Made by a program: the position numbers and the translations under genes
The notes under the pieces: model-generated
What the model saw: only the letters and a program-made list of their open reading frames with translations
The model's database searches: none
What the model was told of the DNA's origin: nothing
Shown here: piece after piece, positions 11,245-64,000 of the stretch
Layout of the letters: every line of letters begins with the position of its first letter
Numbering within the stretch: position 1 is the first letter of the stretch
Virus record (IMG/VR): IMGVR_UViG_2654587994_000003
Coordinates: 1 to 64,000 of that record
DNA length: 64,000 nucleotides
Source: a virus
Lineage: Duplodnaviria > Caudoviricetes
Reading direction: 5' to 3' (one strand)

Positions 11245-11316
11245 AATTGAGCGCTCAATTGTCAACCGGAAGGCGGGTTTTGACCCGTTTTCCGGTCACT
11301 GGGAAAATTTATTTTG

Positions 11317-21049: not shown

Positions 21050-21117
21050 TGTTTTGATGCAGCCCTGCCCTCGTCGGTTCACGCCCCGGCGAGGGTTAGG
21101 CATTTGAGGATTTGCCC

Positions 21118-23777: not shown

Positions 23778-23790
23778 TGGAGATGCAGCC

Positions 23791-29065: not shown

Positions 29066-31560
29066 GCTTCAAGGATTGCATGCATACAGCCGTCGAAGGC
29101 GGCGAAGTTTCGAAAGAGGACGCCGCACGCCTCACCCGCGAGTTCGACCGGATGCGCGAGAAATTCGCTGCTAACAGCGAAGTGACGGCTGACGCGGAGG
29201 CGAAAAAGGCATTGGCAGAATTGCTGAAGGCTGAAAGCGCCCATCAGAAACGCAAGGCGAAACTCTCGCTTTCGTCGATCAAACGGATTGCGGCCGACAT
29301 CAACAGCTATAAAAATCCGCGCGGTGAACACGATGTTGGTGCTGCAGCGCTGGACCTGCTCGAACACTTTGGCACCGCGCCCTTCGACAGTGTCGAAGGC
29401 CGGCGCAAGGCGATCATCGGCATGGCTCATGCCCGAATGGATGAAGTGCTGTCCCATTTCAAGCGTTCCGCGCTTCTGGGTGACGTTGGTCGGCACAACA
29501 AGGCCCAACTGGACGAGGTGGTGCGCGAGGCTTTTGGCGAAAATTCCGGAAACCCCGCATCCAAACAATTCGCCCAGGTATGGGAAGATACCCACGAATG
29601 GCTGCGCAGGCGATTTAACGCCGCCGGCGGTGCGATCGGCAAGCTCGAGCGCTGGGGATTGCCGCAGCATCATGATGCGCGGGCTTTGCGCAAAATGGGC
29701 CTCGACCAGTGGAAAGCGGATATTCGTCCCCTCCTCGATGTCAGCCGCATGAAAAATCCGTTGACCAGTCAGCCGATCGACGCGGCCGAGCTCGACGATA
29801 TTCTCGATGGCATCTGGACCAACATTGCGACGGAAGGCTGGTCGAAACGCGAACCGTTGCGCCAGGCGTTCGGTAAAGGCGCGCTTGCCAACCAGCGCGC
29901 CGAGCACCGCTTCCTGATTTTCCGTGACGCCGACAGCTGGCTTCGATACCAGCGCGATTACGGTGGCGGCGGTGATGCATTCGCCGCCATGATGGGCCAT
30001 ATCAACATGATGGCGAAAGACATCGCTGCGATGGAGGTACTAGGCCCCAATCCCAACGGCACCATCGAGTGGCTGAAACAGGCGGTTCAGAAACAGGCGA
30101 TGGAGAAGGTTGCCGGCCGGCCGAGCCGCTTTGCCGGAAAGCCGGAACGGGCGATCGACGGCGCGCAGGCTGCCAACAAGAAGATTGACGCAGTCTGGGG
30201 CTCCATCCGTGGAACGCTCGAAACGCCTGTCAATGGCCGCTGGGCTTCAGGCCTGGCTGCCACCCGCAGTCTCATCACCGCAAGTGTTCTCGGATCTGCC
30301 GCGCTGTCTTCCGTCTCCGATATCGGCACGAGCATGATAGCCAGGCAGTTCGTTGGCATTGGCGCCCGCGGTGCTTTTGCTGACCTGGTAAAGGCCGCCG
30401 GCACGCAAACACGAAGGGAGGCGGTTGCTTCCGGCCTCATCCTCGAGGAGGCGATGCACGTCTTCCATGCACAGGCCCGGTACGTCGGCACGATCGACGG
30501 CCGCGGCTGGTCCGGGTTCCTTGCCGATCGGGTACTGACCCTTTCGGGTCTTACGCCCTGGAGCCAGGCAGGCCGCCATGCCTTCGGTCTCGCCTTCATG
30601 CGAACCGCTGCAGAAAACGCCGGCAAGCCCTTCGCTTCGTTGCCGCCGGCGTTCCGTGACGTCATGAGCCGCTACGGGATCCGTGAGCTCGACTGGGACA
30701 AGATGCGCAAACTGCCAATGCATGACATGGGCAGCGGCACCAAGATCATGCGGCCGAACGAGATCGCCGAGCGACTGGATGAGCGGCTGGCAGAACGCTA
30801 TCTGACGATGATCCAGGCCGAAACCGAATATGCAATTCCGTCCGGATCCGCACGCTCGAAAGTCATGCTGGTCGATGAGAACCGCCCGGGCACCTTCATC
30901 GGCGAAGTGGTGCGCAGCTTCGCCCAGTTCAAAAGCTTCGGCGCCGTTTTCCTGCTTTTGCACGGCCGACGCGTTGCCGGACTGCTGGTAGGAGACGATC
31001 CTTGGAAAGGTGCCCGGTATGCCAGTGCTCTACTGATATCGACAACACTTTTCGGCGGCATGGCGCTCCAGCTTAAGTCAATGGCGAGCGGTCGAGATCC
31101 TCAGGATATGGCGAGTGGTGCATTCTGGGGTGCCGCGATGCTGCAAGGCGGCGGCCTTGGCATTTTCGGTGATTTCCTGTTTTCTAATATCAACAGGTAT
31201 GGCGGCGGCTTTGCAACGACATTCGGCGGCCCGCTCATGCAGCGCGCCAACGATGCCTGGAACCTCACCGCCGGCAACGTCGCCCAGCTGGCCAGCGGCG
31301 AGAAAACGCACTTCGGCCGCGAGCTCGTCAAGTTCATGAAGGGCAACACACCCGGATCCACCATCTGGTATACAAAGCTTGCCTGGGAAAGGATCGTCTG
31401 GGACCAGTTGCAATACCTGATCGATCCCGAGGCCAACAAAGCGTTCAAGCAACGCCAGCGCTTCTTCGACAAGGAATTCGGCCAGGGGTTCTGGTGGCGA
31501 CCCGGACAGGTTGCCCCTGACCGAGGGCCGAGCCTGCCGGCAGCGATCGGCGCAAGTTGA
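29062..31560 (+). CDS. Large internal virion (DNA ejection) protein
   Basis: WGLPQHHD, QFKSF, LQGGGLGIFGDFL motifs of BPP-1-like injection proteins. Confidence 0.8.
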   Translation: MSFKDCMHTAVEGGEVSKEDAARLTREFDRMREKFAANSEVTADAEAKKALAELLKAESAHQKRKAKLSLSSIKRIAADINSYKNPRGEHDVGAAALDLLEHFGTAPFDSVEGRRKAIIGMAHARMDEVLSHFKRSALLGDVGRHNKAQLDEVVREAFGENSGNPASKQFAQVWEDTHEWLRRRFNAAGGAIGKLERWGLPQHHDARALRKMGLDQWKADIRPLLDVSRMKNPLTSQPIDAAELDDILDGIWTNIATEGWSKREPLRQAFGKGALANQRAEHRFLIFRDADSWLRYQRDYGGGGDAFAAMMGHINMMAKDIAAMEVLGPNPNGTIEWLKQAVQKQAMEKVAGRPSRFAGKPERAIDGAQAANKKIDAVWGSIRGTLETPVNGRWASGLAATRSLITASVLGSAALSSVSDIGTSMIARQFVGIGARGAFADLVKAAGTQTRREAVASGLILEEAMHVFHAQARYVGTIDGRGWSGFLADRVLTLSGLTPWSQAGRHAFGLAFMRTAAENAGKPFASLPPAFRDVMSRYGIRELDWDKMRKLPMHDMGSGTKIMRPNEIAERLDERLAERYLTMIQAETEYAIPSGSARSKVMLVDENRPGTFIGEVVRSFAQFKSFGAVFLLLHGRRVAGLLVGDDPWKGARYASALLISTTLFGGMALQLKSMASGRDPQDMASGAFWGAAMLQGGGLGIFGDFLFSNINRYGGGFATTFGGPLMQRANDAWNLTAGNVAQLASGEKTHFGRELVKFMKGNTPGSTIWYTKLAWERIVWDQLQYLIDPEANKAFKQRQRFFDKEFGQGFWWRPGQVAPDRGPSLPAAIGAS

Positions 31561-31610
31561 CCCTACCTACCCCATGAAATCATGGCCCTGTCGAAATCAG
31601 GGCCATTTTC

Positions 31611-33554
31611 ATGAGCAGCGTCTTTCCTATCACTGACGACCCGCGGTACCGCAGATACACGGCCAGTGCCGGCCAGACTGTGTTTCCCATCCCCTTTCCC
31701 TTCCTCCAGAACGAGGATCTGGGGATTTATCTTCAGACGTCCTCGAGCGAGTACACCCTCTTCCCTCCCGAAACGTACGTCCTGTCCGGGGCGGAAAATC
31801 CTGCAGGTGGCACGTTGACGCTCAACGTGCCCAGGTCCGCCGGCGATGTTATCTTAATCCTCGGCGAAGCGGTTCTCGACCGCCTCTCTTCGATCGTCAG
31901 AGACGGTCGGTTTTCCAGCTCGTTGATCGACAGCGAACTCGATCGCATTCGCATCATCGAATTGGAGTTTCGGCGCGACAATAACCGCAGTCTGAAAGTG
32001 GATTACGGTGCGGGCGGCCTGACGATTGCAGCTGATCTATCGGATGGTGATACTTTGATGAAACAGGGGGACTGGCTCGTCAAAGGTCCTAATGCAGAGC
32101 ATATCGCATCTGCAGAAGGTTATGCGGAAGAGGCAAAAAGCGCCAGCGAGACAGCGCTTAATGTGCTTGACCAGATACTTATTCGTGCGCCGAACGCATT
32201 TCCGGCGACGCGCTTGGAGTTAAAGGCGCTGCCGACCTCTACTATAACCTCAGCGTATCTTAAGGAACCCGGCCGCGAAGGTCAGTTTATTTGGAAAACC
32301 GGAGACTTTAGTGCGCGAATTGCGGCAGATCCGCAAGGCGCTGTTTATCTCAAGGCAGATGCGGTAGCCGGGACAGCAGGCGCGTGGGTCCGGGCTGTCT
32401 TTACACCACTGGATCCCAGATGGTTCGGGGCCGTTGGAGACGGCGTCATAAACGACGCCGCCGCGATCCAGGCGATGCTAAATTTCGCCGGACAAAACAA
32501 CCTTGCCGTTGAGCTCCCCGCCGGCAAATTTGCATGTGGAACGACGGGCCTGACAGCGTCGGGTGTCCCCAGGATTTGTGGTCGCGGCCGCCAGGCGACA
32601 AAGTTCATTTGGGATGCCGGTTTCACGGGTTTTGGCCTCGACATAACGATAAGCCTCGACGGAGCCTATTCGCAGCAGGTCGAACTGGCGCAGTTCTCCC
32701 TCGAGACGAAGGCCGCCGCTACAGGCGGCGCAATTCGCGTGGTGGGAACGTCTTCAGGCGCGGGGTCCGTGAACATGGATCGCTCCACAAATAGACTGAC
32801 TGTGCGCGATATATTCATCACCGGGAAAACCACCCCTTTGGCAGACGGCTGGTCGACCGGACTTACTATTCGCAACGTTACCAACGCGCTAGTTGATGGG
32901 CTCTCGTTCAGAGGTAAAGTGAACTCTGCGGGCGAGCCGAACTATGACAGCAATGACGCAATCGCGTACCAGGGCGACGGGATTACACCGCACCACGTTG
33001 CCCTTACGCTGGTCAATTCGTTTATCATTTATGCTAAACGCGGCGTGAACTGCTATGATTTTGAGGGCGTTCTCGTCGACAACTGCCAGATCATAGGCGT
33101 AGATAAAGGTGTTCTTTTCGCCGCAGCGACTGATTATCCCCACGCATCCGTAATGAACTCGCATATCAATGCAGCGACGACCTGCATCGAAATCACGAAC
33201 ATCAAAGAGTTCGTCATTGTAGGCAACTGCCTTTATTGTGAGCTAGGGGCCTTTACTGCTAGCCATGTAAGCGTATTTGGCATCAGCTCATTCGGCACGA
33301 TCGGCAACAATATCTTCGAAAACCTGAAGACGGCTTTCCACGTCAACTCCATCACGCTTCGAGATACAGTGCATCACTGCCTCATCACTTCTAACGTTTG
33401 GAAACGAACTAATCCGGTGAACGGATCAACCACCGCCGGGATTTGCATATGGATGATGGCATCTACTACGTGGAACAAAGCCCCGGCAAGCGTTAACCTC
33501 TTCGATGCGTCAGGAACCTATCTTCTGAACCAGGGGACCAACAACTCTGGTTAA
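31611..33554 (+). CDS. Tailspike: T7 gp17-type anchor plus pectate-lyase-like beta-helix depolymerase
   Basis: YTASAGQTVFPIPFPF anchor; WFGAVGDGVINDAAAIQA; N/I-rich repeats. Confidence 0.88.
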   Translation: MSSVFPITDDPRYRRYTASAGQTVFPIPFPFLQNEDLGIYLQTSSSEYTLFPPETYVLSGAENPAGGTLTLNVPRSAGDVILILGEAVLDRLSSIVRDGRFSSSLIDSELDRIRIIELEFRRDNNRSLKVDYGAGGLTIAADLSDGDTLMKQGDWLVKGPNAEHIASAEGYAEEAKSASETALNVLDQILIRAPNAFPATRLELKALPTSTITSAYLKEPGREGQFIWKTGDFSARIAADPQGAVYLKADAVAGTAGAWVRAVFTPLDPRWFGAVGDGVINDAAAIQAMLNFAGQNNLAVELPAGKFACGTTGLTASGVPRICGRGRQATKFIWDAGFTGFGLDITISLDGAYSQQVELAQFSLETKAAATGGAIRVVGTSSGAGSVNMDRSTNRLTVRDIFITGKTTPLADGWSTGLTIRNVTNALVDGLSFRGKVNSAGEPNYDSNDAIAYQGDGITPHHVALTLVNSFIIYAKRGVNCYDFEGVLVDNCQIIGVDKGVLFAAATDYPHASVMNSHINAATTCIEITNIKEFVIVGNCLYCELGAFTASHVSVFGISSFGTIGNNIFENLKTAFHVNSITLRDTVHHCLITSNVWKRTNPVNGSTTAGICIWMMASTTWNKAPASVNLFDASGTYLLNQGTNNSG

Positions 33555-43574: not shown

Positions 43575-43651
43575 GGCCCCTTAGCTCAACTGGATAGAGC
43601 AACTGCCTTCTAAGCAGTAGGTCGCAGGTTCGAGTCCTGCAGGGGTCGCCA
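43575..43651 (+). tRNA. tRNA-Arg(TCT), probable integration site of prophage 2
   Basis: GGCCCCTTAGCTCAACTGGATAGAGC ACTGC-CTTCTAA-GCAGT..GTTCGAGTC..GCCA. Confidence 0.96.
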
Positions 43652-44304: not shown

Positions 44305-44961
44305 TCACGCCGCGTCCTCCAAGTGCCAGTGCAGGAAAGCATCAAGCTGGCGATGCAAATCCACGATGTCACCGATGTTGTGGATCTCGACGTCGGCACC
44401 ACCACACCCCGCCTCGCTCTCATGCGATCCTGCAATACCGCCACGACCGACAAGCTGCCAGACCACGCCACCGAGCTTGCGAACCTCGTCGGCTTCGTTC
44501 GGGAAGCGGCAGTCATCGACGACTACGCAGCCGCCAAACGCAAGCACGCCGTCTACGCGTGAGCGCCAGAGGTTTGTCCAGAAGTCCTCCCCCATGCACT
44601 TGCGGCCCCATTCAGTGCCAAGCGTTTGCATAGCGTAGCGAGGCGTGCGTCCGGACAGCATTGCAAGGTCGGTTTCTTTGTGCGCTCCTTCGATGTGGCC
44701 TTCACCAAGACCTATGGCCCGCAACATGTCTTTCAGCGGCCCTGCGAACTTCACCAGTTGGTATCCGTGCCTCTCAACCAGGTATTTGCTGGCCGTGCTC
44801 TTACCGCTGCCAGCAAGGCCGGTGAGCGCGATGACGGTTGGCAGACTGGTGCTAACCTTCCCAATCGCCGCGCCGAGCGCGCGCAGTTCTGCTGGCACAT
44901 TATCGTTCGCCGGTACGGCTGTGAGGCAGCCGGTGTCTTTGGATGTGATTGCGTCTACCAT
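44305..44961 (-). CDS. Deoxynucleoside monophosphate kinase
   Basis: GLAGSGKST, FAGPLK, TPRYAMQTLGTEWGR, DDCRFPNE, HESE. Confidence 0.9.
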   Translation of the reverse strand: MVDAITSKDTGCLTAVPANDNVPAELRALGAAIGKVSTSLPTVIALTGLAGSGKSTASKYLVERHGYQLVKFAGPLKDMLRAIGLGEGHIEGAHKETDLAMLSGRTPRYAMQTLGTEWGRKCMGEDFWTNLWRSRVDGVLAFGGCVVVDDCRFPNEADEVRKLGGVVWQLVGRGGIAGSHESEAGCGGADVEIHNIGDIVDLHRQLDAFLHWHLEDAA

Positions 44962-45218
44962 AAATCCTCCGAATAGAGCTGGGGGCCATTGGTGGCCGAT
45001 TTGATTTGGCCTGCCGCATGCGCGAGATAGAATGCCTCAACGCGGTTCACGAAACGACCTCTATCTGTGATGAATCCTTGCGCCTGAGGCGTCGCCACCG
45101 CGCCATCTATGCTCATTTGGGTGTCCATCGTTTGGATGATGGTGTGATGTCTGGCAGGCGGCGGGAGCGAAATCGTTGCGCCGAACTGGATTGCCGCGGC
45201 GGCTATACGCTCTAGCAT
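44955..45218 (-). CDS. Conserved phage hypothetical protein
   Basis: PPARHH..QGFIT..GRFVNR.EA..LYSEDLW. Confidence 0.8.
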   Translation of the reverse strand: MLERIAAAAIQFGATISLPPPARHHTIIQTMDTQMSIDGAVATPQAQGFITDRGRFVNRVEAFYLAHAAGQIKSATNGPQLYSEDLW

Positions 45219-45445
45219 TTGTCTGCCTCAGCGAGCGCTTCAAATATTACTTCTTCGTTCAAGTAATTCTCTCGCGCCAGACTTGCGAAATCCACTTCAG
45301 CAGGGCAGTGAACGATCGCCGCTGCAATGGCCTCCCTCGACCGCTGGAGGTATCGAAGTCGCTCTGCTCTTGGCATCCCCATCCACGACCTCTTATCAAA
45401 AGAGGAGTCCGATTTTGCCATCGCTGCAATGACCTTAGCTAACAT
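45212..45445 (-). CDS. Phage hypothetical protein
   Basis: Coupled ORF with AGGAG SD. Confidence 0.65.
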   Translation of the reverse strand: MLAKVIAAMAKSDSSFDKRSWMGMPRAERLRYLQRSREAIAAAIVHCPAEVDFASLARENYLNEEVIFEALAEADKC

Positions 45446-45723
45446 ACCGTCTCCTTAATCCTCTTCTTGCCTTCGACATTCGGCTTCACCACCGGCTTAA
45501 ACCGGCGCAGCGCGAACGGTGGATCCTCATCGCCGAACTGCGGACACACGCCACGGTTCACGCCCGCCAGCCTGATGCCGGCGTAATCTCCACCGAGATA
45601 CGTGCGGCACATGCCCACCCACGTCGCCGTGTAGATCTCCCCGGCACGAATGCCGGGGTATTGCTCAGGAAGGGTGGTGTCGTCGACGCAGACGACTTCG
45701 TCGCCGGGTTTGATCGCATTCAA
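45439..45723 (-). CDS. Phage hypothetical protein
   Basis: KPGDEVVCVDD..RRFKPV pattern. Confidence 0.7.
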   Translation of the reverse strand: MNAIKPGDEVVCVDDTTLPEQYPGIRAGEIYTATWVGMCRTYLGGDYAGIRLAGVNRGVCPQFGDEDPPFALRRFKPVVKPNVEGKKRIKETVC

Positions 45724-45920
45724 GAGACGGCCTCCTCCCGCGTCATTTCACCAAGGTAGCTCACTGCGATTGGGCACGCGTCGGCGCCTCCCAAAACAGC
45801 ATTCCGCGCTTCTCGAATCCGCCCCTCGTTCACGTATTTGTCGGGCCACCCCATCGTGACGCGCGCAAACGTTCCATTCGCTGCCGCGTAGCTGAACATG
45901 AAATAATGGAGCTTCTTCAA
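45720..45920 (-). CDS. Phage hypothetical protein
   Basis: AVSYLGEMTREE motif; coupled. Confidence 0.65.
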   Translation of the reverse strand: MKKLHYFMFSYAAANGTFARVTMGWPDKYVNEGRIREARNAVLGGADACPIAVSYLGEMTREEAVS

Positions 45921-46648
45921 GCCGCCCTCCCCGCCATCAACGCATCAAACGTCGCCAGGAACTCAAGCTCCGCCTCCTCCGGCGACCAGTACCGCAGCTT
46001 CACGCCCAGCTCTTTCCCGGCGTACCGCGCATGCCACGGCATCTCCCGCAGGTTGACCAGCTCGTCGGCGATGATGCTGTTGTCGGCGTCGTGAACCTCG
46101 CGCGGCAACTCCTTCGGCAAACCAAACCGCGCCGCGATAGCCAGCCAGTTGTCTTGCTCGATCGCACGGTAGTTCGTCAGGTACGGCTTGAGTGGGCGCG
46201 GAATGTCCACGCAGTATGCTTCAGGGGCATCGTGCAGAAGGCCAGCCAAAGCCACCTCCGGCGCGTGCTTGGCTGCAAGGTGACGGGCAATCAGAACTGA
46301 ATGTTCGGCGACGCTGTAGAACTTGATGCAGTGCCCTGCGTAGCGGCATTGCAGGCCGAGCGAATGCGCGATGTCTTCGATGTAGACTTCGTGCGGGCGC
46401 GGCGACATCGGCCAATATTTGCGACCGGTGAAGGTTTGCATGAAATCGCCGGCGCGGGGTGGTTCGGCTGGTGTGTTGCGGGTTAGGCCGATGTATTGTC
46501 CGTTGTCCTGGGACTGAGGACGGTTGTCGTTGGCGGCAACTGGGGTACACCTTGTGCGCTCTTCGCGCAGCGCCATTGCAGCCTTAAAGGTGGCGATCTT
46601 TTTATCTGCGATCTCTCTCGCGTCTATCACTGCAGCGTATGGCATCAA
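45917..46648 (-). CDS. HD-domain 5'-deoxynucleotidase (YfbR/YfdR-like)
   Basis: IEDIAHSL..RYAGH..YSVAEHS..LLHDAPEAY..D..PLK. Confidence 0.88.
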   Translation of the reverse strand: MMPYAAVIDAREIADKKIATFKAAMALREERTRCTPVAANDNRPQSQDNGQYIGLTRNTPAEPPRAGDFMQTFTGRKYWPMSPRPHEVYIEDIAHSLGLQCRYAGHCIKFYSVAEHSVLIARHLAAKHAPEVALAGLLHDAPEAYCVDIPRPLKPYLTNYRAIEQDNWLAIAARFGLPKELPREVHDADNSIIADELVNLREMPWHARYAGKELGVKLRYWSPEEAELEFLATFDALMAGRAA

Positions 46649-47073
46649 AACGCCTTCCCACCAGCCATAAGCCGGTTTTCGATTTTGTGGTCAGGGCGGT
46701 TGGCGTTGAATGCCATCTTCTCGACGGCGGCGCCGCCGAGGTCATAGCCAAGGAACGCAGCCAGATCGCCGATCCGAATCATTGCGTCAGCAAGCTCCAC
46801 CTCAGCCATAGGTCGGTGCGGCAGCTTGTCGTCCATCAGCACTTTACCGGGCTTGGACTTGCGATAGCCCTCCATCGCTTCGCTGATCTCGCTGTGAATC
46901 AGGCAAAGCATCTCAGGCACGTTGCGGTCCAGCGCCCTGCCTGTGGCGAGGTCAGTGTACCAGCCTGCTCTACGGCTTGCTGCGTGGCAGTCGGCTGCAA
47001 ACAGGTTGATCGCTGCGGCGTGGTGGAATTCCACCTCCGCAGCAATTTTTAAAGTCACGACGTTGTCACTCAT
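46645..47073 (-). CDS. MazG-like NTP pyrophosphohydrolase
   Basis: LIHSEISEAMEG..EVELAD..IRIGD..KMAFN. Confidence 0.82.
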   Translation of the reverse strand: MSDNVVTLKIAAEVEFHHAAAINLFAADCHAASRRAGWYTDLATGRALDRNVPEMLCLIHSEISEAMEGYRKSKPGKVLMDDKLPHRPMAEVELADAMIRIGDLAAFLGYDLGGAAVEKMAFNANRPDHKIENRLMAGGKAF

Positions 47074-47279
47074 TCTTGTCTCCTCAGTGGCGGTGGTTGA
47101 CCGCCAGTTGGTAGCTGGCGGCTGGTTGGGGATTGCTGGGGAAGTCGCTGTATAAATGCTAAAAAAACCCGAATTTGCCGGTTGTTTCGGTGGTTATCCC
47201 CCATTGGCAATTGACCTTCGGCCCGTAGGGAGTCCTTATTGCCATTGTGGTGCCAGCGAATCTTTCACTGGAGCACCAA

Positions 47280-47429
47280 ATGAAGACCTTCCTTAAGTTC
47301 AGGCACGGTAAAACCGAAGGTGAAGCGAACAACACTCTCGGAATGTTGCTGCTTACGATCATTGCCGTAACCTACAGGCTTGCGCCGTTCATCGCGCTGG
47401 GCGCTGGCGGATACTGGTATGTTCGCTAG
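47280..47429 (+). CDS. Small antisense membrane peptide (49 aa)
   Basis: GGAG SD; hydrophobic C-terminal half. Confidence 0.5.
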   Translation: MKTFLKFRHGKTEGEANNTLGMLLLTIIAVTYRLAPFIALGAGGYWYVR

Positions 47430-47433
47430 GGCG

Positions 47434-48687
47434 TCACGCCACCGCCCTCGCCGGCTCATTGTCATTGGCCGCCGCATATCGCCCCGCGACCATCTCCGGA
47501 CGCAACGTGGCGCGGGCAACTTCGCCGAAGCGGCGAGAATACGTGATAACTTTGGCAGACCGGCCCGACAGCCATCCGCCGCCAGCAGCGTATGCGTCAG
47601 GCGCGGCAAGCGTTTCGTGGCGCTCGACATACATCAGCGCCGACTTGCGGCCCTCATCGCTGTGCAGGTGCCCGACATGCGCGAAGGCGTACTTCGATGC
47701 GCCGAACATTTCGCGGAACATGCCTGCCAACGTCGCATCGACCTGGGCCACGCCACGCTTATGGCCGTGGTGATAGAACAGCGCTGTGTCGCCCCACTTG
47801 TAGGCGTAATAAAGCATAGGGCTGGTATCGACCGACACGCGCGGCTCGTTCTCGTAGATCGTCGCCAACAGCTCGCGAACCCATACGGACGAGGCCGGGT
47901 CATGGTTGCCCGAAGCCATGACGACGTGAACGTGCTTGTGCTTTTGCAACAGCATATCAACGACGCGACGCAGAGTGCGAATAACGACGCGGACCACCTT
48001 ATGCAGGCGGGAATCGGCGTCGAGAACGTGCTTATGCGCAGGCGTCACGCTCTCAAGAGCGTCATGGTGCAAGAGGTCGCCGAGCTGCGCGAGAACAGCT
48101 GTGTGCGCCTGCGGAGCGCCAGCCACAGCGGCGGCAAACCAATCCAGCAGCAACTGTTCGGCCAGCCTTAGATCGTAGTCGGCGCCCGTTTCCTCGCGAT
48201 GGGCCAGCATGCCAAAATGGCTGTCGGTCACAACGAACTGGTTGAGGAGGTCTTCTTCGATGTGCTGCGGCGCAGGCATTATCGTGATGCGAGGCAGATT
48301 TTCCTTGAGGCCGTCGACAACGGCGCGGAACGCGGCCAACTGCCCTTCGGCATCCACCGCCGTCTTCTGCCACTGCTGGATAACGCGCCCCTCAGCATCA
48401 ACGAGGGCAGACACACCTTTGACGACGTGGCCAGTCGGCACCGCGAACTTCTCGCCCCGTTCCGGCGTCTGCTGGATGAACGTGCCGCTCGGAGTGTTGC
48501 TGATACGGCTTATGCGAAAGCCAGGAAGGACAGGCTCCGTGCCAAGAAGGCCAGCTTCGGCGGCGCGTTTGATGCTCTCGGCAAGAGCGGACTTGCCGAT
48601 GCCAAGCACGGCGGCAGCCTTCACGAGCGTGCCGTGCTCTTTGTAGGCATCGGCTCTCCGGCGTAGTTCTTCTATGGGTAGAGGCAT
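47434..48687 (-). CDS. HTH + calcineurin-like metallophosphoesterase
   Basis: TDSHFG, LGDLLH, SGNHD, HHGH, GHLH; GAGGAG SD. Confidence 0.85.
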   Translation of the reverse strand: MPLPIEELRRRADAYKEHGTLVKAAAVLGIGKSALAESIKRAAEAGLLGTEPVLPGFRISRISNTPSGTFIQQTPERGEKFAVPTGHVVKGVSALVDAEGRVIQQWQKTAVDAEGQLAAFRAVVDGLKENLPRITIMPAPQHIEEDLLNQFVVTDSHFGMLAHREETGADYDLRLAEQLLLDWFAAAVAGAPQAHTAVLAQLGDLLHHDALESVTPAHKHVLDADSRLHKVVRVVIRTLRRVVDMLLQKHKHVHVVMASGNHDPASSVWVRELLATIYENEPRVSVDTSPMLYYAYKWGDTALFYHHGHKRGVAQVDATLAGMFREMFGASKYAFAHVGHLHSDEGRKSALMYVERHETLAAPDAYAAGGGWLSGRSAKVITYSRRFGEVARATLRPEMVAGRYAAANDNEPARAVA

Positions 48688-48739
48688 GCAGTCTCCTCGA
48701 TGTGGTGGTGAAGGCCGCTTGGTGGGCGGCCTGATTATT

Positions 48740-49405
48740 TTACTTACGCGCCAGCAACTCACAAACCGCAGTCGAAGGCACGACATAGCCATAGCCAACC
48801 AGCGAGCCTGAGAAGCCAATAGGCGCAGCCATGACGCCAACAGTGATGCCGATCAGGTCGCCGTTGTCTGCGTAGACGGGTCCGCCTGACTGGCCCATCA
48901 CAGTTGTGATGTCTGTCACATAGACCGATTTCCAAGGACCTGTTTCGCGGGACTCGCCAGCGATCTTTCCGTATGCGGCAACGAATTCGATTTTCAGAGG
49001 ATTGCCGTAAGCAACGATAGGATCGCCAACATTCACAGCGTGGCAGGCCAGTTTTGCGACGCCGAGGCCGTCCGACGACGTACGCAGCAGTGCAATGTCA
49101 TTGGCTTTGTTGACCCAGAGGACATCAGCCTTGCGAAGAGCTCCGCCCTTCGCTTTCAACTGAACTTCCTTCGCGTCGCCGACGACGTGCGCAGCAGTGA
49201 CTATGAAGCCATCGCCGATATGAACGCCGGAGCCGTGGCCGTTTTCAAGCTGGATTTTAACGGTGGCTGTTTCTGTTGCTGCGGGTGTTGGTGGAGGAAG
49301 GAGCGCATAGGCGGCCGCAGATGTCGCGGCGATGACGAGGAATAAAGCAACGAGGAATGCTGTTGGCGTACGCCGCGACGCGGCATGCAGGAATCGTCTG
49401 AGCAT
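48740..49405 (-). CDS. Membrane-anchored trypsin-like serine protease
   Basis: GSG, VTAAHVV, DIALL, GQSGGP; N-terminal TM. Confidence 0.88.
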   Translation of the reverse strand: MLRRFLHAASRRTPTAFLVALFLVIAATSAAAYALLPPPTPAATETATVKIQLENGHGSGVHIGDGFIVTAAHVVGDAKEVQLKAKGGALRKADVLWVNKANDIALLRTSSDGLGVAKLACHAVNVGDPIVAYGNPLKIEFVAAYGKIAGESRETGPWKSVYVTDITTVMGQSGGPVYADNGDLIGITVGVMAAPIGFSGSLVGYGYVVPSTAVCELLARK

Positions 49406-49485
49406 GATTATCCCCTCTTTCTGGCGACCGTGCGCCAATGTGGTGGTCTCGGTTGGTTGCCGAGCGGCTGGTGAGGCCGACAATC

Positions 49486-49514
49486 AAGCTATACTGTTTT
49501 TACAAATTTGTCAA
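49486..49514 (-). promoter_or_regulatory. Sigma70-like promoter TTGACA-N17-TAGCTT overlapping palindrome ACAAATTTGT
   Basis: Directly upstream of the leftward operon. Confidence 0.6.
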
Positions 49515-49540
49515 GATTTGCGGCCGCCTCAGAATCCCGA

Positions 49541-49574
49541 TTGACTCTTTAGAGCATGAGAACATAATAAGAAC
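49541..49574 (+). promoter_or_regulatory. Promoter TTGACT..CATAAT overlapped by alphaproteobacterial LexA box GAAC-N7-GAAC (49560-49574)
   Basis: Exact consensus; upstream of SRAP operon. Confidence 0.8.
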
Positions 49575-49577
49575 ATC

Positions 49578-49781
49578 ATGTCTCACAAGATGCGAACACA
49601 AGCAATGAAACAGTACAGATTTCGGGCTGGGCGCTGGATCGTAACAGTGCGCGCGCCGACCTTTGCCCACGCTAAAATAGCCGCCGCAGCAAAGCTGGAT
49701 CAACGGGCAGCGAAGCTTTTCGCTAGTCCGCCTGCATGCGGCTGGAAGCTTGAACGACTAGCAGACACCACCAGAGGATAG
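49578..49781 (+). CDS. Hypothetical protein (SOS operon)
   Basis: First ORF after the LexA box; start may be 49605. Confidence 0.6.
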   Translation: MSHKMRTQAMKQYRFRAGRWIVTVRAPTFAHAKIAAAAKLDQRAAKLFASPPACGWKLERLADTTRG

Positions 49782-49785
49782 TCCT

Positions 49786-49986
49786 GTGCGCCCAAATTCA
49801 AGAGAACCGCAAGCTGATCCGGTTGACCACATCATTGCATGGCATGACGGCGATAGCCGCGCCGCGATTGAGACGCTGATGGAAGACATCCAGCACTTGC
49901 GGCTGCAGCTTGCGCTGGCGACCGCAGCGATGGGAACCGGCTTCACGAGAGGATGGAAGCCGGACGCCGACAGAAATGCCAGGTGA
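49786..49986 (+). CDS. Conserved rhizobial small protein
   Basis: IIAWHDGDSRAAIETL..GFTRGW pattern; GAGG SD. Confidence 0.75.
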   Translation: MRPNSREPQADPVDHIIAWHDGDSRAAIETLMEDIQHLRLQLALATAAMGTGFTRGWKPDADRNAR

Positions 49987-50452
49987 AGGAGCTTATCTGC
50001 TTTCGGACTACGGCGGCGAGCCTGTCGGCGTTATATGTGAGGAATGCGAGCTCCTGAAATTCATTAGTTCGGCCGAGCTAATGGTCGAATTTGGCGACCT
50101 GTCGATGCCGACGATGCTGCGGCGCATTTCCCAAGAAGTGATCAAATGCGCTAGGCCGATGGAGGGCTTTTCAGGCCGCTGCATGCTTCATTACCACGCG
50201 CGCGCCGGCAGTCAGATCGATGCATTGAAACAAGCGACGCCGCCGGCCGTTAGAGTGAAGGAAATTCGAAACTGGGAGATTGTCGTTGCCAAGTGCAACT
50301 ACTGCGGCCACGTTTCAAATATCCCGCACTGGCAACTGAACCGCGCGGCGAAGACGGACACTACGGTGGACGAAATTGCCAAGCGACTGAAATGCAAACG
50401 ATGCAGCGTGAAGGGTGATGTGAAAATCACCATAGCCAAGATGCCGAGGTGA
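49976..50452 (+). CDS. Double zinc-ribbon protein
   Basis: CEEC..C..C and CNYC..CKRC. Confidence 0.7.
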
Positions 50453-50454
50453 GC

Positions 50455-51228
50455 ATGTGTAACTTGTATCGCATGGAGGACAAGGACTGGGTCTCGAAAT
50501 GGGCTCAGGACGCCGAAAGCTTTATCAACCTGATGCCGGCCTATCAAATGAACCCCGATCAGATGGGCCCCATCGTCCGCAACACTGCGGATGGCAAGAA
50601 GCAGCTTGTGCATGCGCGCTGGGGCCTGCCCTCACCGATTTTCGTGCAGAAGAAGGCTGCGGAAGCTCGAGCGGATAAGCTGAGGGCCAAAGGCAAGGCC
50701 GTCGATATGGATGAACTCATCCGGATGGAGCCGGACCGCGGTGTGACGAATGTGCGCAAGCTCAATCTGCCTCACTGGACGCGCTGGTTCGGCGTCGAGC
50801 ACAGGTGTCTCGTCCCGGTCACCAGCTTTGCCGAGCCGGATCCGGCAAGCAAACAGGAAGGTGGCAATGTGCCTAATGCCTGGTTTGCCCGAGACGAGGC
50901 AAAATCACTCATGTTCTTCGCGGGCATCCACGTGCCGCAATGGAAAAGCGTTCGCAAGGTGAAGGACGGAATGACCACGGACGATCTCTATGGCTTCCTG
51001 ACCACGGATCCCAATGATCTCGTTAGGCCCATCCACGAGAAGGCTATGCCCGTTCTTCTGTTGACGAAGGAAGAAACCGACGTCTGGATGCGGGCGCCTT
51101 GGGATGAGGCAAAGCACCTCGCCCGCCCACTGCCAAACGATGCCCTGATTGTGCTGTCGCGTGAACCTTATGGCTCAACGATTGTTTCGCGAAGCGGAGA
51201 ACCGGTGGAGCAAGGAAGCCATTTATAA
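50455..51228 (+). CDS. SOS response-associated peptidase (SRAP/YedK, abasic-site processing)
   Basis: MCNLY N-terminus, [23 protein letters not shown]. Confidence 0.92.
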
Positions 51229-51301
51229 CCGGCGGCCGCCGCCAGATGAATGCATGTCAATGAGGAGAGTAAGCCCACTATTCGGATAGAGGAGGAGGAA
51301 G

Positions 51302-51715
51302 ATGCATATTCGCCCCTACATTCTCGAAAATCACGGTGTCTACCCAAAGCGGTTTCTGGAAGATGGCGACTTCTTCGGAGTGCAAAAAGCCATTCACGAG
51401 GATCTGGACGCGCGGCTGATCGCTGAGGTGGATCGAGAATCCGACCTCACCGCCTATTCCGGATACGTCGCGATGGAACTGTGGGCCGATGACGACGACA
51501 TACCGACGGGCGCGAAGATCGAGATGTTGTTCAGTGAACGGAAAGGCATCGCCGCCGTCCTCTACGACCATCCGAAAATATCCGATGCTTTCATTGAGTG
51601 GGTGTTTTGCAACTCGCCCAACGACGCATTGACCAAATGGAAGAAGAAAGTTCGTTGGCCGCTGATGGAAACATCACGGGGGCCGGTCGACATAACCGGA
51701 GAGGCCCAACAATGA
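51302..51715 (+). CDS. Hypothetical protein
   Basis: GGAGGAGG SD. Confidence 0.7.
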   Translation: MHIRPYILENHGVYPKRFLEDGDFFGVQKAIHEDLDARLIAEVDRESDLTAYSGYVAMELWADDDDIPTGAKIEMLFSERKGIAAVLYDHPKISDAFIEWVFCNSPNDALTKWKKKVRWPLMETSRGPVDITGEAQQ

Positions 51716-51879
51716 GCGACCAGACCAGCAAGGCCGGCGACGGCATCCACGAGAATCACTGGTGCGAGCATCCGGGCTGTCGTAAATGGGGTGGTTTCGG
51801 CTTTAGCCGAAATAAAGTTGAGAAGTCATCCTGGCATTGCTGGGAGCATTATCCGTTCAAGGAGCAGCGCGGCGGTTAA
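51712..51879 (+). CDS. Small Cys/His zinc-finger protein
   Basis: CEHPGC..WGGFG..WHCWEH. Confidence 0.7.
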   Translation: MSDQTSKAGDGIHENHWCEHPGCRKWGGFGFSRNKVEKSSWHCWEHYPFKEQRGG

Positions 51880-51911
51880 CGAGCTGCTGCGCCAATCTCA
51901 ATCACTTTTAC

Positions 51912-51936
51912 GGAACGCCCGGCTTATTATCTCGTT
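51912..51936 (+). promoter_or_regulatory. Sigma-EcfG type promoter GGAAC-N16-CGTT
   Basis: Exact consensus 35 bp upstream of the DUF6894-like gene. Confidence 0.7.
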
Positions 51937-51970
51937 CGTCAAATTACAGACGAGAACAGGGATTTAGGTA

Positions 51971-52240
51971 ATGCCGCGGTACTACTTTCACGTTCGAGAC
52001 GCCGAAGGTCTGTCCGTGGATTTCGAGGGCGCTGATTTCGCTAGTGACGAGCGAGCCTGCGACGAGGCGAAGCAAGCTGCAAAAGAAATGCTTGCGGAGA
52101 GAATTCTGAGAGATGAGCTTCTGGACGGCACCATGTTTGAAGTGTTCAAATCAGCCGGCGTTTTGGTCGCGAAAATCCCGCTGATGTCTGTAATGCGTTT
52201 CAAACTTTCGATCAGTCAAAGATTTGACGGTCGCGAGTGA
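51971..52240 (+). CDS. DUF6894-like protein
   Basis: MPRYYFHVRD..DFEG.D..EA..AAKEMLAE. Confidence 0.8.
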   Translation: MPRYYFHVRDAEGLSVDFEGADFASDERACDEAKQAAKEMLAERILRDELLDGTMFEVFKSAGVLVAKIPLMSVMRFKLSISQRFDGRE

Positions 52241-52410
52241 ATCCTGCACCATCGCGAATGTGTAGGCAGGATTGGAGGGCATCGGCTCATGATGATCATG
52301 AGCGAAGAGGACATTCCCGCTTTTGTTGAAGCTTGAGGCGGCTCTGGGAACGGATGAGCTTGAGCGGATGAAACGGGACGAGGTGAAGAAGCAGTGAGGG
52401 GCCGCCGAAA

Positions 52411-52683
52411 ATGATGAGCCTGGCACGTCTCATTTGCGGACTTTTTGCGGTTGTGGCCATCGTTATTTTTATTGGCCTGCTGACGGTAGATCGGTGGTTT
52501 ACCATCGGGGAACGAGCGCAAGGTGATTACCCGACACGGACGCAGGCAGAACAAGCCGAGGCTGAAGCTAGGGCGAGCGCAGCGGCCGCGGAAGCTCGTA
52601 AGGCGGCTGGGAATGCTTTAAAGGCGTCAGAGGAGACAAACGGGCTTGAGCAAATGAAACGCGACGAGGTGAAAAATCAATGA
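52411..52683 (+). CDS. Small membrane protein
   Basis: N-terminal TM, Ala-rich helix. Confidence 0.6.
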   Translation: MMSLARLICGLFAVVAIVIFIGLLTVDRWFTIGERAQGDYPTRTQAEQAEAEARASAAAAEARKAAGNALKASEETNGLEQMKRDEVKNQ

Positions 52684-52729
52684 GCGGTGAAGGGGTAATT
52701 TTCGGTCCTGTCACTGGGGAAGCAAAATA

Positions 52730-53734
52730 ATGCGCTCGATTCTACTTTTCCTTTGTTTCTCGGCATTCTCCTGCCTTCACGCGAACGCCGACGATATTCA
52801 GGCCGGTGGTGAACAGTGGCAAGACCCGACATGCAAAGATGTGGCGCGCGCAATCATCATGACTGAGATCTATCCTTCTTATTCCTACGAGATGCCTCTT
52901 GTGCGAGAAGACGGGACATATCGCCCTTTCATCGAGAGGAAATTTTCACCGACCGAACGCCAGGAAAAGCGGCATTTTGAGAAGGAGTGGAGATCAACTC
53001 CTCGCCTTGGCGTCGAGTGGTCGTCTTGGGACAGATATGAGCCCACCTTGACAAACTGCAAGCTGGTTGGCTCGGAAGTGGACGCGAGAGGCGTGGTAAT
53101 TCACTACCGGATGAACTGGACCAGCCTCCCTTACCGAGCGGAAATGGATGCGTGGGTTTCGCAAGACCATCAGATGTTAACGCGTGTTACACGTCGCTAC
53201 CTCGGCGGTGGATTAGAGTTCCCCGAGGAACGAGTGGCGTTTCTGTTCAAGTATGACGGCCTCTTGATCACCTCGCCACTGAGGAGCCCAAGACCTTCCG
53301 ACAGCCTCACATCTTGCGATCGGGTGAAACGGATGGTTGCGAAATTCAATGAGACGCAAGCCGTCCAAATGACGATGCGATTCGTCAATAATGGCGAAGG
53401 AGAACCTTATTTTGGCCAGTATTTGCACGTTGGCGCAAAGGAGTACTCGCGAGATACAGGATGGCCGTGGGAAGTCCGGGATCGTGTATTCGTCCCTACA
53501 GAGATAATTAACAAATGCAAATTGCTCGGCTTTCAAGAAGTAAATGGCATTGCAACTTCATTGTATGAATACGAAAGGCCAGACCTTCGAGACGGCGAAC
53601 TGCGTATCCTGACCTGGATTTCTGACGAAACCCATCTGCCCGTAAAGGCCCATTTCACACGGCCAAAGCCCGTCGATGGTTTCGAGGTGTACATCACCTA
53701 TGCATTCGACCCGGACGTGAAAGCGCCAATCTGA
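52730..53734 (+). CDS. Secreted protein with internal two-domain duplication
   Basis: Signal peptide; CK..CKLVG.E..WVS vs CD..CKLLG.E..WIS. Confidence 0.75.
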   Translation: MRSILLFLCFSAFSCLHANADDIQAGGEQWQDPTCKDVARAIIMTEIYPSYSYEMPLVREDGTYRPFIERKFSPTERQEKRHFEKEWRSTPRLGVEWSSWDRYEPTLTNCKLVGSEVDARGVVIHYRMNWTSLPYRAEMDAWVSQDHQMLTRVTRRYLGGGLEFPEERVAFLFKYDGLLITSPLRSPRPSDSLTSCDRVKRMVAKFNETQAVQMTMRFVNNGEGEPYFGQYLHVGAKEYSRDTGWPWEVRDRVFVPTEIINKCKLLGFQEVNGIATSLYEYERPDLRDGELRILTWISDETHLPVKAHFTRPKPVDGFEVYITYAFDPDVKAPI

Positions 53735-53872
53735 CACGGCCGCGTGATTTTGACATCCCTGAAGGGCAACTTGCCGCCCCGGATACGCTTGGGTTGCTAG
53801 TGTTGCCTGCCCGCTACAGCATATTTCATCGAGTTGTTGTTTAGTGGAGGCTCAAATTTAGGAGTTCAGACC

Positions 53873-54535
53873 ATGAAAAAGACACTCGCGACCCTGGCTT
53901 TTGTTTTGGCAGCGTCCACCGCTATGGCTGCTGACGCGGTTTCTGAAGTACCAGCAGCGCCTGTTGCTGATGTAGCACCAGCATTCAGCTGGACTGGCTT
54001 CACCATCGGTGTTCAGGGTGGCTACAACTGGAACAACCAGGACATCGAAATCAGCGGCACCGCAGGTAGCTTCTCAGAAGATTTTGACGGCGGTATCCTC
54101 GGCGGCTTCGTTGGTTACAACTATGACTTCGGCAACAGCTGGGTAGTCGGTCTTGAAGCTGATTTCGATAAGAACTGGGCAGACAACACTGCGTTCGGCG
54201 GCGCACTCACCTATGGTTTCGACTGGCAGGGTTCGGTTCGCGGCCGCGTTGGATACGCCTTTGACCGCGCTCTCGTGTACGGTACTGCCGGCTGGGCTTA
54301 TGCTCGCGGCTATGCGGACGTAGCGGGCTTCGGTGAAGAGAAAGAAACCTTCAACGGCTACACCCTCGGTGTTGGCCTTGATTATGCCTTCACGGACAAC
54401 GTTTTCGCCCGTCTGGAATATCGCTACACCGACTTCGGCGACAAGACGTTCGATTTCGGCGGCACTGGTGGCGGCACCATCAACTCTGACATCGATCAGC
54501 ACGCTATCCGTGTCGGCCTCGGCGTAAAGTTCTGA
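53873..54535 (+). CDS. Omp25/RopB-family outer-membrane beta-barrel (moron)
   Basis: AMAADAV signal, FSWTG..G..GGY, RGRVGYAFDR, RLEYRYTDFG, terminal F. Confidence 0.92.
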   Translation: MKKTLATLAFVLAASTAMAADAVSEVPAAPVADVAPAFSWTGFTIGVQGGYNWNNQDIEISGTAGSFSEDFDGGILGGFVGYNYDFGNSWVVGLEADFDKNWADNTAFGGALTYGFDWQGSVRGRVGYAFDRALVYGTAGWAYARGYADVAGFGEEKETFNGYTLGVGLDYAFTDNVFARLEYRYTDFGDKTFDFGGTGGGTINSDIDQHAIRVGLGVKF

Positions 54536-63069: not shown

Positions 63070-63498
63070 CTAGAGCGGCTTCATGAAATGTGTTTCGACA
63101 GCGCTGTAGCCGCGCCGCTCGTAAAGGCTGGAGACGTCGTTGGTCGCGAGCGAAGCCATGCCAGCGGAGACGCAGCCAACCGATCGCGCCCACGCTTCAT
63201 AAGCGTCGAGCATCCTGATCGCTCCCCGACCGCGTGCCGCTGGCGACACGAACCAGACCGTTTCCTTGGCAATGCGACCAGCGCCGAATGGGTGCTCGAA
63301 AGCACAGGCCATTAGGACGCCCTGCGCGGGCTTGCCAGCAACAAGAACGCAGGACGCTGGCGACGCCAGATGCTGCTGGAATAGCCGATCGGCGTAGGCT
63401 GCCTGGAATGGAAAGGTAAACCCGGCGGCTTCATGGCTCTCACGCAGGAGCGCCACAACACGGTCGCGGTCCTCAGCAATAGCGAAGCGGACGTCCAT
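63070..63498 (-). CDS. GNAT acetyltransferase in tail region
   Basis: WFVSPAARGRG..LYERRGY. Confidence 0.82.
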   Translation of the reverse strand: MDVRFAIAEDRDRVVALLRESHEAAGFTFPFQAAYADRLFQQHLASPASCVLVAGKPAQGVLMACAFEHPFGAGRIAKETVWFVSPAARGRGAIRMLDAYEAWARSVGCVSAGMASLATNDVSSLYERRGYSAVETHFMKPL

Positions 63499-64000
63499 CA
63501 CAGAGGGATCCAAGTTTTCATCCGTCTGATCATGCGAATGTTTGCTGACGTCACACCAAATCGGCGGGCCACATGCGGATTCGGTTCAGAAGACTCTCGG
63601 ATATCGTAAACATCATCCCAGGTCAGCTTTCGGAGGTGCGATCGTTCGCCCCTGTTATGAGTTCCATGGCACTCTCGGTCGCGCTGATTTTCGGCTGGAG
63701 TAGCCCAGCGCAAATTCTCGGGCGTATTGTTTGTAAAGTCCCCGTCATTGTGCGCGACCATACTCTTCTCAGGCGTCGGCTGCGGCCCATTAAACGCTGC
63801 GCAAACGAGCCTGTGGACATATCCCTTGAATGATCTACCCTCTGCTTGCATGCGGACCGTCGCGTACCCATCGCGATAATCAAACTTCATGATGGCACCG
63901 CGTCGGCGCACTGTCGTTGTCCGACCGTCGCCGTAATCTCGCGTTACCGTTCGATCTACGGAGCGAACACGCCCAAGGTTCGAAACCTCATAGAATCCTT
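63498..64000 (-). CDS. NUMOD4-HNH homing endonuclease (5' end outside window)
   Basis: Frame stays open to the edge: GFYEVSNLGRVRS; VHRLV..AF, HNDG..NN..ENLRWAT..EN. Confidence 0.9.
   Translation of the reverse strand, partial: GFYEVSNLGRVRSVDRTVTRDYGDGRTTTVRRRGAIMKFDYRDGYATVRMQAEGRSFKGYVHRLVCAAFNGPQPTPEKSMVAHNDGDFTNNTPENLRWATPAENQRDRECHGTHNRGERSHLRKLTWDDVYDIRESSEPNPHVARRFGVTSANIRMIRRMKTWIPL

Follow-up and report, generated by a model that had tools for sequence, protein, structure and literature searches.

The first 64,000 bases of the 108,556-base virus record IMGVR_UViG_2654587994_000003 of IMG/VR (hereafter the window; positions elsewhere in the contig are on the same scale) include part of a temperate prophage whose early proteins repeatedly carry the tetrapeptide Ala-Asn-Asp-Asn (ANDN). 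We find that ANDN is a short linear motif under selection at the peptide level, with synonymous drift of its codons, and that it coincides with the start of the transfer-messenger RNA (tmRNA) tag of the host order. Based on these sequences, we consider it probable that the phage hard-codes a two-part copy of the ssrA tag, in which ANDN would dock on the host adaptor SspB and a terminal Ala-Ala (AA) or Val-Ala (VA) would engage ClpX.

A tetrapeptide marks the early genes

Eighteen copies of ANDN occur across the six frames of the contig (range 44899-106964), and all fall within a single 64.6-kb prophage at a tRNA-Arg gene, 3 inside the window and 15 beyond it (contig >64000). The shorter NDN is found 25 times in the six frames, preceded by Ala in 18, and 10 of the 18 copies read AANDN. 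Seventeen sit in frame in open reading frames (ORFs) of at least 40 amino acids (14 ORFs), whichever strand the gene occupies. Gene classes were compared with a heuristic set of calls made for the present analysis (144 ORFs of at least 50 amino acids, selected greedily with GC content at third codon positions (GC3) above that at second positions (GC2), one opposite-strand ORF being swapped manually), and the early set was defined as the two modules at 44.3-48.9 kb and 79.9-108.1 kb (47 genes, 10,444 amino acids). Early proteins hold 16 copies where their composition would predict 0.066 (Poisson P = 6.5e-33), which places ANDN more than 20 orders of magnitude ahead of all other over-represented 4-mers; the runner-up unrelated 4-mer has P ~7e-7. 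No copy was found in the 43 called genes of the structural and cargo block (48.9-79.9 kb) or in the 51 called genes of the region 1-43.6 kb. Ends in AA were seen in 11 of the 47 early proteins (0.58 expected) versus 1 of 43 and 1 of 51 in the same two regions. Overlapping start and stop signals were rejected as an explanation of these ends because the terminal Ala and stop codons vary and an overlap would fix only one base.

An earlier note on this DNA, which saw 3 of the 18 copies, had described the motif in three nucleotide-metabolism enzymes: a deoxynucleoside monophosphate (dNMP) kinase, an HD protein (here an HD-domain phosphohydrolase) and a phosphoesterase (here an SbcD-like exonuclease). 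It placed the three peptides correctly on the minus strand, and the C-termini and codons are as it quoted them (Table 1). Its claim of peptide-level conservation is borne out by the distinct 12-mers that encode ANDN in the exonuclease, kinase and HD families (17, 13 and 14, respectively), and the enrichment over background that it called for is present in the early genes. The motif is, however, not confined to these enzymes, as at least 14 early proteins and whole phage lineages carry it.

We give virtually no credence to chance, a composition effect, or a DNA-level signal such as a binding or methylation site that reads ANDN by accident. One copy of the 18 (65696-65707, + strand) does lie outside any credible gene, which is about the chance level, but the P value of about 1e-32, the 17 copies in frame on the strand of their gene and the free variation of third codon positions all speak against such an origin, and a reversed-pattern control gave 0 matches in three of four carrier phage records and 1 in the fourth. 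A motif acting in the DNA itself was rejected, since codons vary and copies follow the frame and strand of the gene.

The peptide is conserved in tails and extensions

In the exonuclease, the motif lies in a C-terminal tail ending RYAAANDNEPARAVA, placed after the catalytic domain. Orthologues were compared in redundant IMG/VR samples that had been gathered starting from the motif or from a single gene family, with ORFs begun at the first start codon, so that some N-terminal positions are approximate. Among 69 loci encoding the exonuclease, 64 carry ANDN, with SNDN in two, DNDN in one and TNDN in one; 40 end in AA and 26 in VA (66 of 69 together). The common layout is AANDN, 5-10 hypervariable residues, and AA or VA. 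An alignment of 62 sequences has A407, N409 and D410 in 61 of 61 and N411 in 62 of 62. The four columns that follow show 8-14 different residues, and tails differ in length. In an AlphaFold2 model built from the alignment, residues 402-418 have a predicted local distance difference test score (pLDDT) below 50 and no secondary structure, with a confident core; the tail is thus predicted to be disordered.

Homologues without the tail are encoded by E. coli phage smaasur, Pseudomonas phage MR4, Sulfitobacter phage pCB2047-C and Dinoroseobacter phage DFL12phi1. They stop at or near the last domain element, those of the E. coli and Pseudomonas phages with PEMLE and PEMVS, and non-rhizobial matches in INPHARED, among the matches listed, end at query residue 394-406 of 418 (one partial match ends at 231). 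By this sequence comparison the tail is an add-on to the domain. The possibility that the tag-like ORF end at 47434 is a tmRNA gene, or a fragment at an integration site, was rejected, as ARAGORN and Rfam recognize only two tRNA genes in the window and the tail is kept as protein in 64 of the 69 orthologues.

The other two enzymes in the window carry ANDN near the opposite end. The dNMP kinase has TAVPANDNVPAE at residue 18, in an N-terminal extension before the P-loop, and ends EDAA; the HD phosphohydrolase has TPVAANDNRPQ at residue 39, likewise in an N-terminal extension, and ends GRAA. ANDN is retained in 34 of 34 kinase and 30 of 38 HD orthologues, in extensions of varying length, the HD context being mostly TTFGPLDKYVA-ANDN. 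MazG orthologues carry it in an N-terminal extension in 12 of 16 cases, unlike the MazG of the present phage. The motif is also found in 16 of 20 helicases, 16 of 19 proteins resembling single-stranded DNA-binding protein (SSB) and 8 of 12 sigma factors, and in none of 16 beta-clamp homologues; AA ends number 0 of 20 for the helicase, 1 of 19 for the SSB-like protein and 13 of 19 for a Sak4-like family. Among 20 genome loci around the helicase, the 17 from alphaproteobacteria hold 1-11 ANDN each and the 3 others hold none.

A longer peptide, T-T-F-G-P-L-(D/E)-K-Y-(V/I)-(A/P), often precedes ANDN in HD and dNMP kinase orthologues (IMG/VR loci L026-L094). Because enzymes of two unrelated families share it N-terminally, it may represent a second linear motif or module, one that is mobile.

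ANDN is the invariant start of the host tmRNA tag

The phage helicase is 99% identical to a prophage gene of Agrobacterium pusense LMG 25623, and the host assignment rests on this near-identity with one named genome. The tmRNA tag of this strain is ANDNNAKEYALAA, its sspB gene adjoins ssrA, and its SspB matches the A. tumefaciens structure 2NYS (1.6e-105) and Caulobacter SspB 2QAS and 2QAZ (4e-36 and 2e-34). Across the host order, SspB was found in 60 of 61 sampled genomes and alpha-type tmRNA in 39 of 41; ssrA and sspB are neighbours, by coordinates, in most genomes in which both were located (loci L095-L124 and L246-L274). ARAGORN returned tags from 29 of 30 host-order tmRNA loci, and all 29 begin with ANDN, end in AA and are 12-13 amino acids long, with a variable middle (for example YAEARL, YAPVAQ or NAKEYAL). 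The four residues of the phage motif are therefore exactly those with which all recovered host tags begin. Across the 5.3 Mb of the A. pusense genome, the DNA pattern GCNAAYGAYAAY has 43 matches versus 10 for its reversed control; 20 of the 43 lie in a 54-kb sister prophage and one is ssrA itself.

Placement within proteins is also tag-like. In 347 non-redundant instances outside the exonuclease family, ANDN is most often followed by 8-10 residues (16, 21 and 15 cases), compared with 8-9 for the tags of the host order. ANDN lies no more than 14 residues from the end in 103 instances, of which 61 close with AA and 6 with VA; among the remaining 244, 96 close with AA. Overall, AA ends were found in 157 of 347 bearers versus 447 of 6,995 mechanical ORFs of at least 60 amino acids from the same loci, a background that includes spurious ORFs and the bearers themselves. 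Thirty-one instances begin within the first ten residues.

Phage peptides and the alphaproteobacterial tag share the start (A)ANDN, the end AA and a length of 11-14 residues from ANDN to the end; many of the phage peptides are unstructured and C-terminal, and the host has both ssrA and sspB. They differ in that the phage version is encoded in the ORF instead of being added by trans-translation, that its middle begins x-P where the host has Y/N-A, and that ANDN also occurs alone, N-terminally or within linkers, with tens to hundreds of residues between it and the C-terminus. Against the 12-13-residue C-terminal form, the methyltransferase of the early operon fits (ANDNHAVAKVAA, 12 residues) and the exonuclease nearly fits (ANDNEPARAVA, 11 residues, ending VA), whereas the dNMP kinase and HD protein do not, ANDN being N-terminal and only the AA end C-terminal. 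ARAGORN and Rfam detected no tmRNA gene in the window, only tRNA-Pro and tRNA-Arg. Since the bearers are ordinary conserved ORFs, we are therefore dealing with a mimic of the tag and not the tag itself.

A candidate two-part degradation signal

In the mechanism that we propose, ANDN would copy the first four residues of the host tag into disordered termini and linkers of early proteins that serve replication, recombination and nucleotide metabolism, as well as the excisionase and sigma factor. SspB would dock on ANDN and tether the protein to ClpX, which would engage the C-terminal AA or VA, leading to degradation by ClpXP. The two parts may form one contiguous tag, as in the exonuclease, the methyltransferase and many relatives, or lie apart, AA closing the protein and ANDN standing N-terminally or within a linker, as in the kinase, HD protein, primase and others. 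Early proteins would then be short-lived and their levels would track transcription closely; nucleases, helicases, methylase, Xis and sigma factor would disappear once repression or the late switch sets in, and rapid clearance may render leaky expression from the prophage harmless. Keeping early enzymes short-lived is the purpose suggested by the restriction of the motif to early genes.

The E. coli tag works in this manner: its first seven residues (of AANDENYALAA) are bound by the folded domain of SspB and its last four are contacted by ClpX, to which SspB tethers the substrate (PMC9963277). In Caulobacter, fusion of AANDNFAEEFAVAA led to proteolysis so rapid that slowing it required deletion of sspB (PMC9393093). 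By analogy, we infer that the phage peptides work like these tags. The tag mimicry put forward in the earlier note has strong sequence evidence (identity with the invariant tag start, conservation as a peptide, and a position often 7-10 residues before a C-terminal AA or VA), and binding by SspB, degradation by ClpXP and a physiological purpose are its putative further steps. Of the two purposes named in the note, timed degradation of the enzymes and titration of SspB or ClpXP, either would be compatible with the sequence data. An extension that we regard as possible but doubtful is that the ANDN code ties early-protein stability to free SspB capacity; through competition with the tmRNA-tagged products of stalled ribosomes, it might serve as a proteome-wide sensor of translation stress and multiplicity of infection, biasing lysis versus lysogeny, or induction.

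Evidence against the tag and competing explanations

Several observations weigh against a degradation tag, beginning with protein ends. Seven of the 14 ANDN proteins of the present phage end in neither AA nor VA, and among the bearers the helicase ends DDDVPF and the SSB-like protein WGSK. In Rhizobium (Sinorhizobium) phage 16-3, the closest named relative, the two features are weakly linked (AA or VA ends in 7 of 16 proteins with ANDN versus 18 of 86). Bearers without the terminal signal would be at home in a decoy, in which abundant early proteins with one or two ANDN copies would saturate SspB or ClpXP and so, instead of being destroyed themselves, stabilize other phage proteins or block the host's clearance of tmRNA-tagged products. 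Tandem copies in the helicase, the SSB-like protein (ANDN plus SNDN), a 116-residue protein and Xis would suit this role, as would the helicase and SSB-like orthologues, which keep the motif and rarely end in AA. We nevertheless judge a decoy improbable: one abundant protein would do, and the motif is instead kept separately in at least 14; 45% of bearers end in AA; and a spacing of 8-10 residues to the C-terminus would be purposeless.

The residues around the motif raise a second difficulty. After ANDN, host tags have Tyr (26 of 29) or Asn (3 of 29) and then nearly always Ala, a Tyr that could matter for SspB. In 285 non-redundant phage instances, a set inflated by exonuclease tails, the position before ANDN is Ala in 157 and Pro in 86, and the second position after it is Pro in 136, so that the phage x-Pro diverges from the host tags. 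This preference, foreign to host tags, would be expected if ANDN-x-P docked on a partner other than SspB, either a phage hub such as the beta-clamp homologue or another early protein, or some other host protein, with a likeness to the tag that is coincidental or partial. Most bearers belong to the replisome or to recombination, classes whose members often have hub-binding motifs in common, and the clamp homologue itself never bears ANDN (0 of 16 orthologues). Against such a partner, few random over-represented 4-mers would happen to match the invariant tag start of the host and also lie at a tag-like distance from a tag-like AA end; Xis, the sigma factor, dNMP kinase and MazG would be atypical clamp clients; and no adaptor, SspB-like or other, was recognized among the phage proteins scanned (68 with PHROGs, 25 with Pfam). 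We regard another partner as unlikely.

Cleavage is a third possible use of a short peptide. A processing site for a phage or host endopeptidase might be imagined given that the phage encodes a trypsin-like protease and a head-maturation protease. The motif is, however, missing from the called structural genes, and a cut would accomplish little at many of its sites, which are only 7-10 residues away from the C-terminus or 2-7 away from the N-terminus. The trypsin-like protease carries a hydrophobic stretch at its N-terminus, and its 16-3 counterpart is annotated as typically periplasmic. We consider processing highly improbable.

Further points against the two-part tag come from its distribution. 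Not all phages of these hosts have the motif: a second, unrelated prophage or remnant from the same host, which occupies the window from base 1 to about 36 kb (1-36300) and makes a useful internal control, has no ANDN, and Rhizobium phage RHph_TM3_3_9 has a single copy. For the gammaproteobacterial tag there is, at the stringency used, no sign of the same copying habit: the whole of IMG/VR has 8 stretches with AANDENY, and several of these fall in giant-virus bins. Finally, the two-part tag presumes that alphaproteobacterial SspB reads ANDN specifically, as is reported of it.

The motif extends across phage lineages

Matches to the ANDN DNA pattern were counted in nine records. Phage 16-3, Rhizobium phage RHph_TM3_3_14B and a 140-kb IMG/VR record each have 18 matches and none to the reversed control, Sinorhizobium phage NV1.1.1 has 20 and 1, and RHph_TM3_3_9 has 1 and 0; both counts are zero in the four phages with tail-less exonucleases. 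A scan of IMG/VR for VAANDNxP returned at least 118 stretches and the reversed peptide 74, totals that are not comparable, and we therefore compared the ANDN content of the fetched loci. The 79 VAANDNxP loci among the matches listed hold 231 ANDN in 753 kb, 51 of them with two or more copies, versus 1 ANDN in 674 kb for 74 reversed-peptide loci. Among the matches listed, some multi-copy loci have only 0-2 genes homologous to those of the present phage; the habit therefore extends beyond 16-3-like phages, and on the sequences compared it is wider than this group, yet not universal among phages of these hosts.

The present prophage is itself, by its shared early, nucleotide-metabolism and HK97-type structural modules, a 16-3-like temperate siphophage. 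The order of its PHROG modules matches the 16-3 annotation, and the exonucleases are 78% identical (tblastn); phage 16-3 differs in having another host genus, a genome about 4 kb smaller and a tag-like portal end. Annotated 16-3 proteins contain 17 ANDN, 15 in 80 non-structural and 2 in 22 structural proteins, and AA ends are found in 18 of 80 and 1 of 22, respectively.

The portal proteins of 16-3 (L125, 2202-3392) and of other relatives, among them several IMG/VR loci, have a tag-like acidic tail (TANDNQEDEAEAA, ANDNQENEAEAA), and that of the present prophage ends only PAARAA. Because a structural protein is marked in 16-3, a simple rule of early genes only does not fit.

Relation to known systems

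Phage proteins with ssrA-like ends have a precedent in mycobacteriophage integration-dependent immunity, in which the integrase and repressor carry ssrA-like C-terminal tags (Broussard et al. 2013, as described in PMC9635641). Both cases involve temperate phages that hard-code an ssrA-like signal, with host proteolysis of the ClpXP type setting the level of phage proteins, as is proposed here. In the mycobacteriophages, as described there, only the C-terminal protease-recognition part is present, on two regulators, integration strips the repressor of its tag, and attP lies inside the repressor gene. In the present prophage, neither the integrase nor the repressors have a tag, the part that is copied is the adaptor-binding one, about a third of early proteins are marked, and attP lies in a tRNA gene. 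Membership in the integration-dependent immunity class is ruled out by these missing tags and by an attachment repeat formed from the 3' end of tRNA-Arg.

The same two-part logic, an adaptor-tethering peptide plus a terminal ClpX degron, is found in E. coli SspB substrates (PMC9963277). The E. coli SspB and ClpXP cases differ in being single substrates, each with its own signal. The N-terminal fragment of RseA is an SspB-delivered substrate, and lambda O and MuA are phage substrates of ClpXP. We know of no phage that uses the tag-binding peptide of an adaptor proteome-wide, and mimicry of ANDN or of an SspB motif in phages was not found in full-text searches of the main text of mostly openly available papers. 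Copying of the adaptor-binding half of the tag, on a third of early proteins and across phage lineages, appears to be new.

Layout of the prophage and neighboring genes

The prophage is bounded by an exact 45-bp direct repeat, whose left copy (43607-43651) is the 3' 45 bases of tRNA-Arg and whose right copy (contig 108237-108281) lies just beyond the integrase gene, outside the window. It thus runs from 43652 through the end of the window at 64000 and on to contig 108281, and it encodes an HK97-type siphophage structural module, an endolysin, a long minus-strand early operon, repressor-like genes, an excisionase and the integrase. The 14 bearers comprise ten named proteins and four of unknown function (Table 1). 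Genes free of ANDN are the integrase, the repressors (ending VVTA and YEAR, with no tag), the beta-clamp homologue, two defense-like inserts and all called structural genes.

Table 1. Features of the contig, taken from a six-frame and ORF listing, PHROGs and Pfam names and the prophage bounds. Positions above 64000 are outside the window.
Feature	Position	Strand	Basis or remarks
tRNA-Arg(TCT)	43575..43651	+	ARAGORN, Rfam
dNMP kinase	44305..44961	-	PHROG 139 at 1.7e-48 over residues 40-210; Pfam DNMK
ANDN motif 1	44899..44910	-	dNMP kinase, GCG AAC GAT AAT
HD-domain dNMP phosphatase	45917..46648	-	PHROG 318 at 2.5e-66; PHROG 8467 covers residues 70-239
ANDN motif 2	46523..46534	-	HD protein, GCC AAC GAC AAC
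MazG-like pyrophosphatase	46645..47073	-	PHROG 5658 at 1.1e-68; no ANDN in present phage
SbcD-like DNA-repair exonuclease / phosphoesterase	47434..48690 (ORF to 48840)	-	PHROG 704 at 2.7e-126; 418 amino acids from Met at 48690
Exonuclease C-terminal tail AGRYAAANDNEPARAVA, predicted disordered	47437..47487	-	residues 402-418
ANDN motif 3	47458-47469	-	exonuclease tail, GCC AAT GAC AAT
Trypsin-like protease, hydrophobic N-terminus	48743-49483		cargo block
SRAP peptidase	50449-51225		cargo block
Outer-membrane beta-barrel protein	53834-54535		cargo block
ANDN protein, unknown	79945-80889	-	early operon
Primase/polymerase with ANDN	84393-86615	-	early operon
DNA methyltransferase with ANDN	88121-89200	-	early operon; ends SAANDNHAVAKVAA
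Gam-like protein with ANDN	91443-91970	-	early operon
Helicase, 2 ANDN copies	92625-94379	-	early operon
Sigma factor with ANDN	94927-95511	-	early operon
ANDN protein, unknown	97567-98400	-	early operon
SSB-like protein with ANDN	98461-99039	-	early operon
116-residue protein, 2 ANDN copies	101968-102318	-	early operon
ORF ending VAANDNGRRR	105365-105742	+	
Excisionase-like gene (Xis)	106761-107030	+	ANDN at residues 4 and 65
Integrase	106972-108063		PHROG 1 at 9.3e-39; no ANDN; ends KKPA, no AA end
Second prophage integrase	371-1585		
Second prophage ParB-like	6861-7667		
Second prophage primases	8724-13167		
Second prophage terminase	14621-16342		
Second prophage head-tail adaptor	16927-18465		
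Second prophage tail and internal virion proteins	21112-33554		

Some marked proteins carry other short peptides at their ends. The helicase tail reads LMDDDVPF, with orthologues ending D(D/E)(V/I)PF, an acidic tip that presumably resembles the C-terminal tip of bacterial SSB; the phage SSB-like protein has no acidic tip and ends RRPWGSK. Tails of the methyltransferase family (in the present phage and relatives L005, L007, L012 and L017) contain Q-x-x-DLF or QLSLFG peptides immediately before or after ANDN, for example KEQPVADLFSAANDN and ANDNRPQLSLFGEAA, which we take to be akin to the beta-clamp-binding consensus. The phage's own clamp homologue is encoded at contig 96454-97509.

Two genes of low GC3 (0.52 and 0.46) are inserted in the early operon (contig 81768-84396, minus strand). 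They match AbiJ_NTD4 and DUF7014, and weakly Schlafen AlbA_2 (E = 3e-4, below the curated cut-off); they look like defense-type morons, and neither has ANDN or an AA end. A cargo block (48743-54535) separates the nucleotide-metabolism genes from the lysis genes. An HNH endonuclease gene lies within the tail-gene module (63498-64000, running to contig 64034), and a further HNH gene adjoins the small terminase (contig 78833-79153).

Implications

Tags resembling ssrA on phage proteins have been known as isolated cases, and here a whole temporal class of proteins seems to be labeled, in many phages that include the genetically tractable 16-3 and Sinorhizobium meliloti system. If SspB does bind the motif, viruses would have adopted a host degron code across a proteome in nature, and the bearers would provide a ready set of natural substrates for alphaproteobacterial SspB, of which few are known. 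In uncultivated viral contigs, ANDN would also offer a simple signature by which to recognize early genes and the class of the host, and its natural variants of tag spacing and linker could be used in degron engineering. With this finding, it becomes possible to test directly how temperate phages rid themselves of early enzymes that damage DNA when lysogeny sets in.

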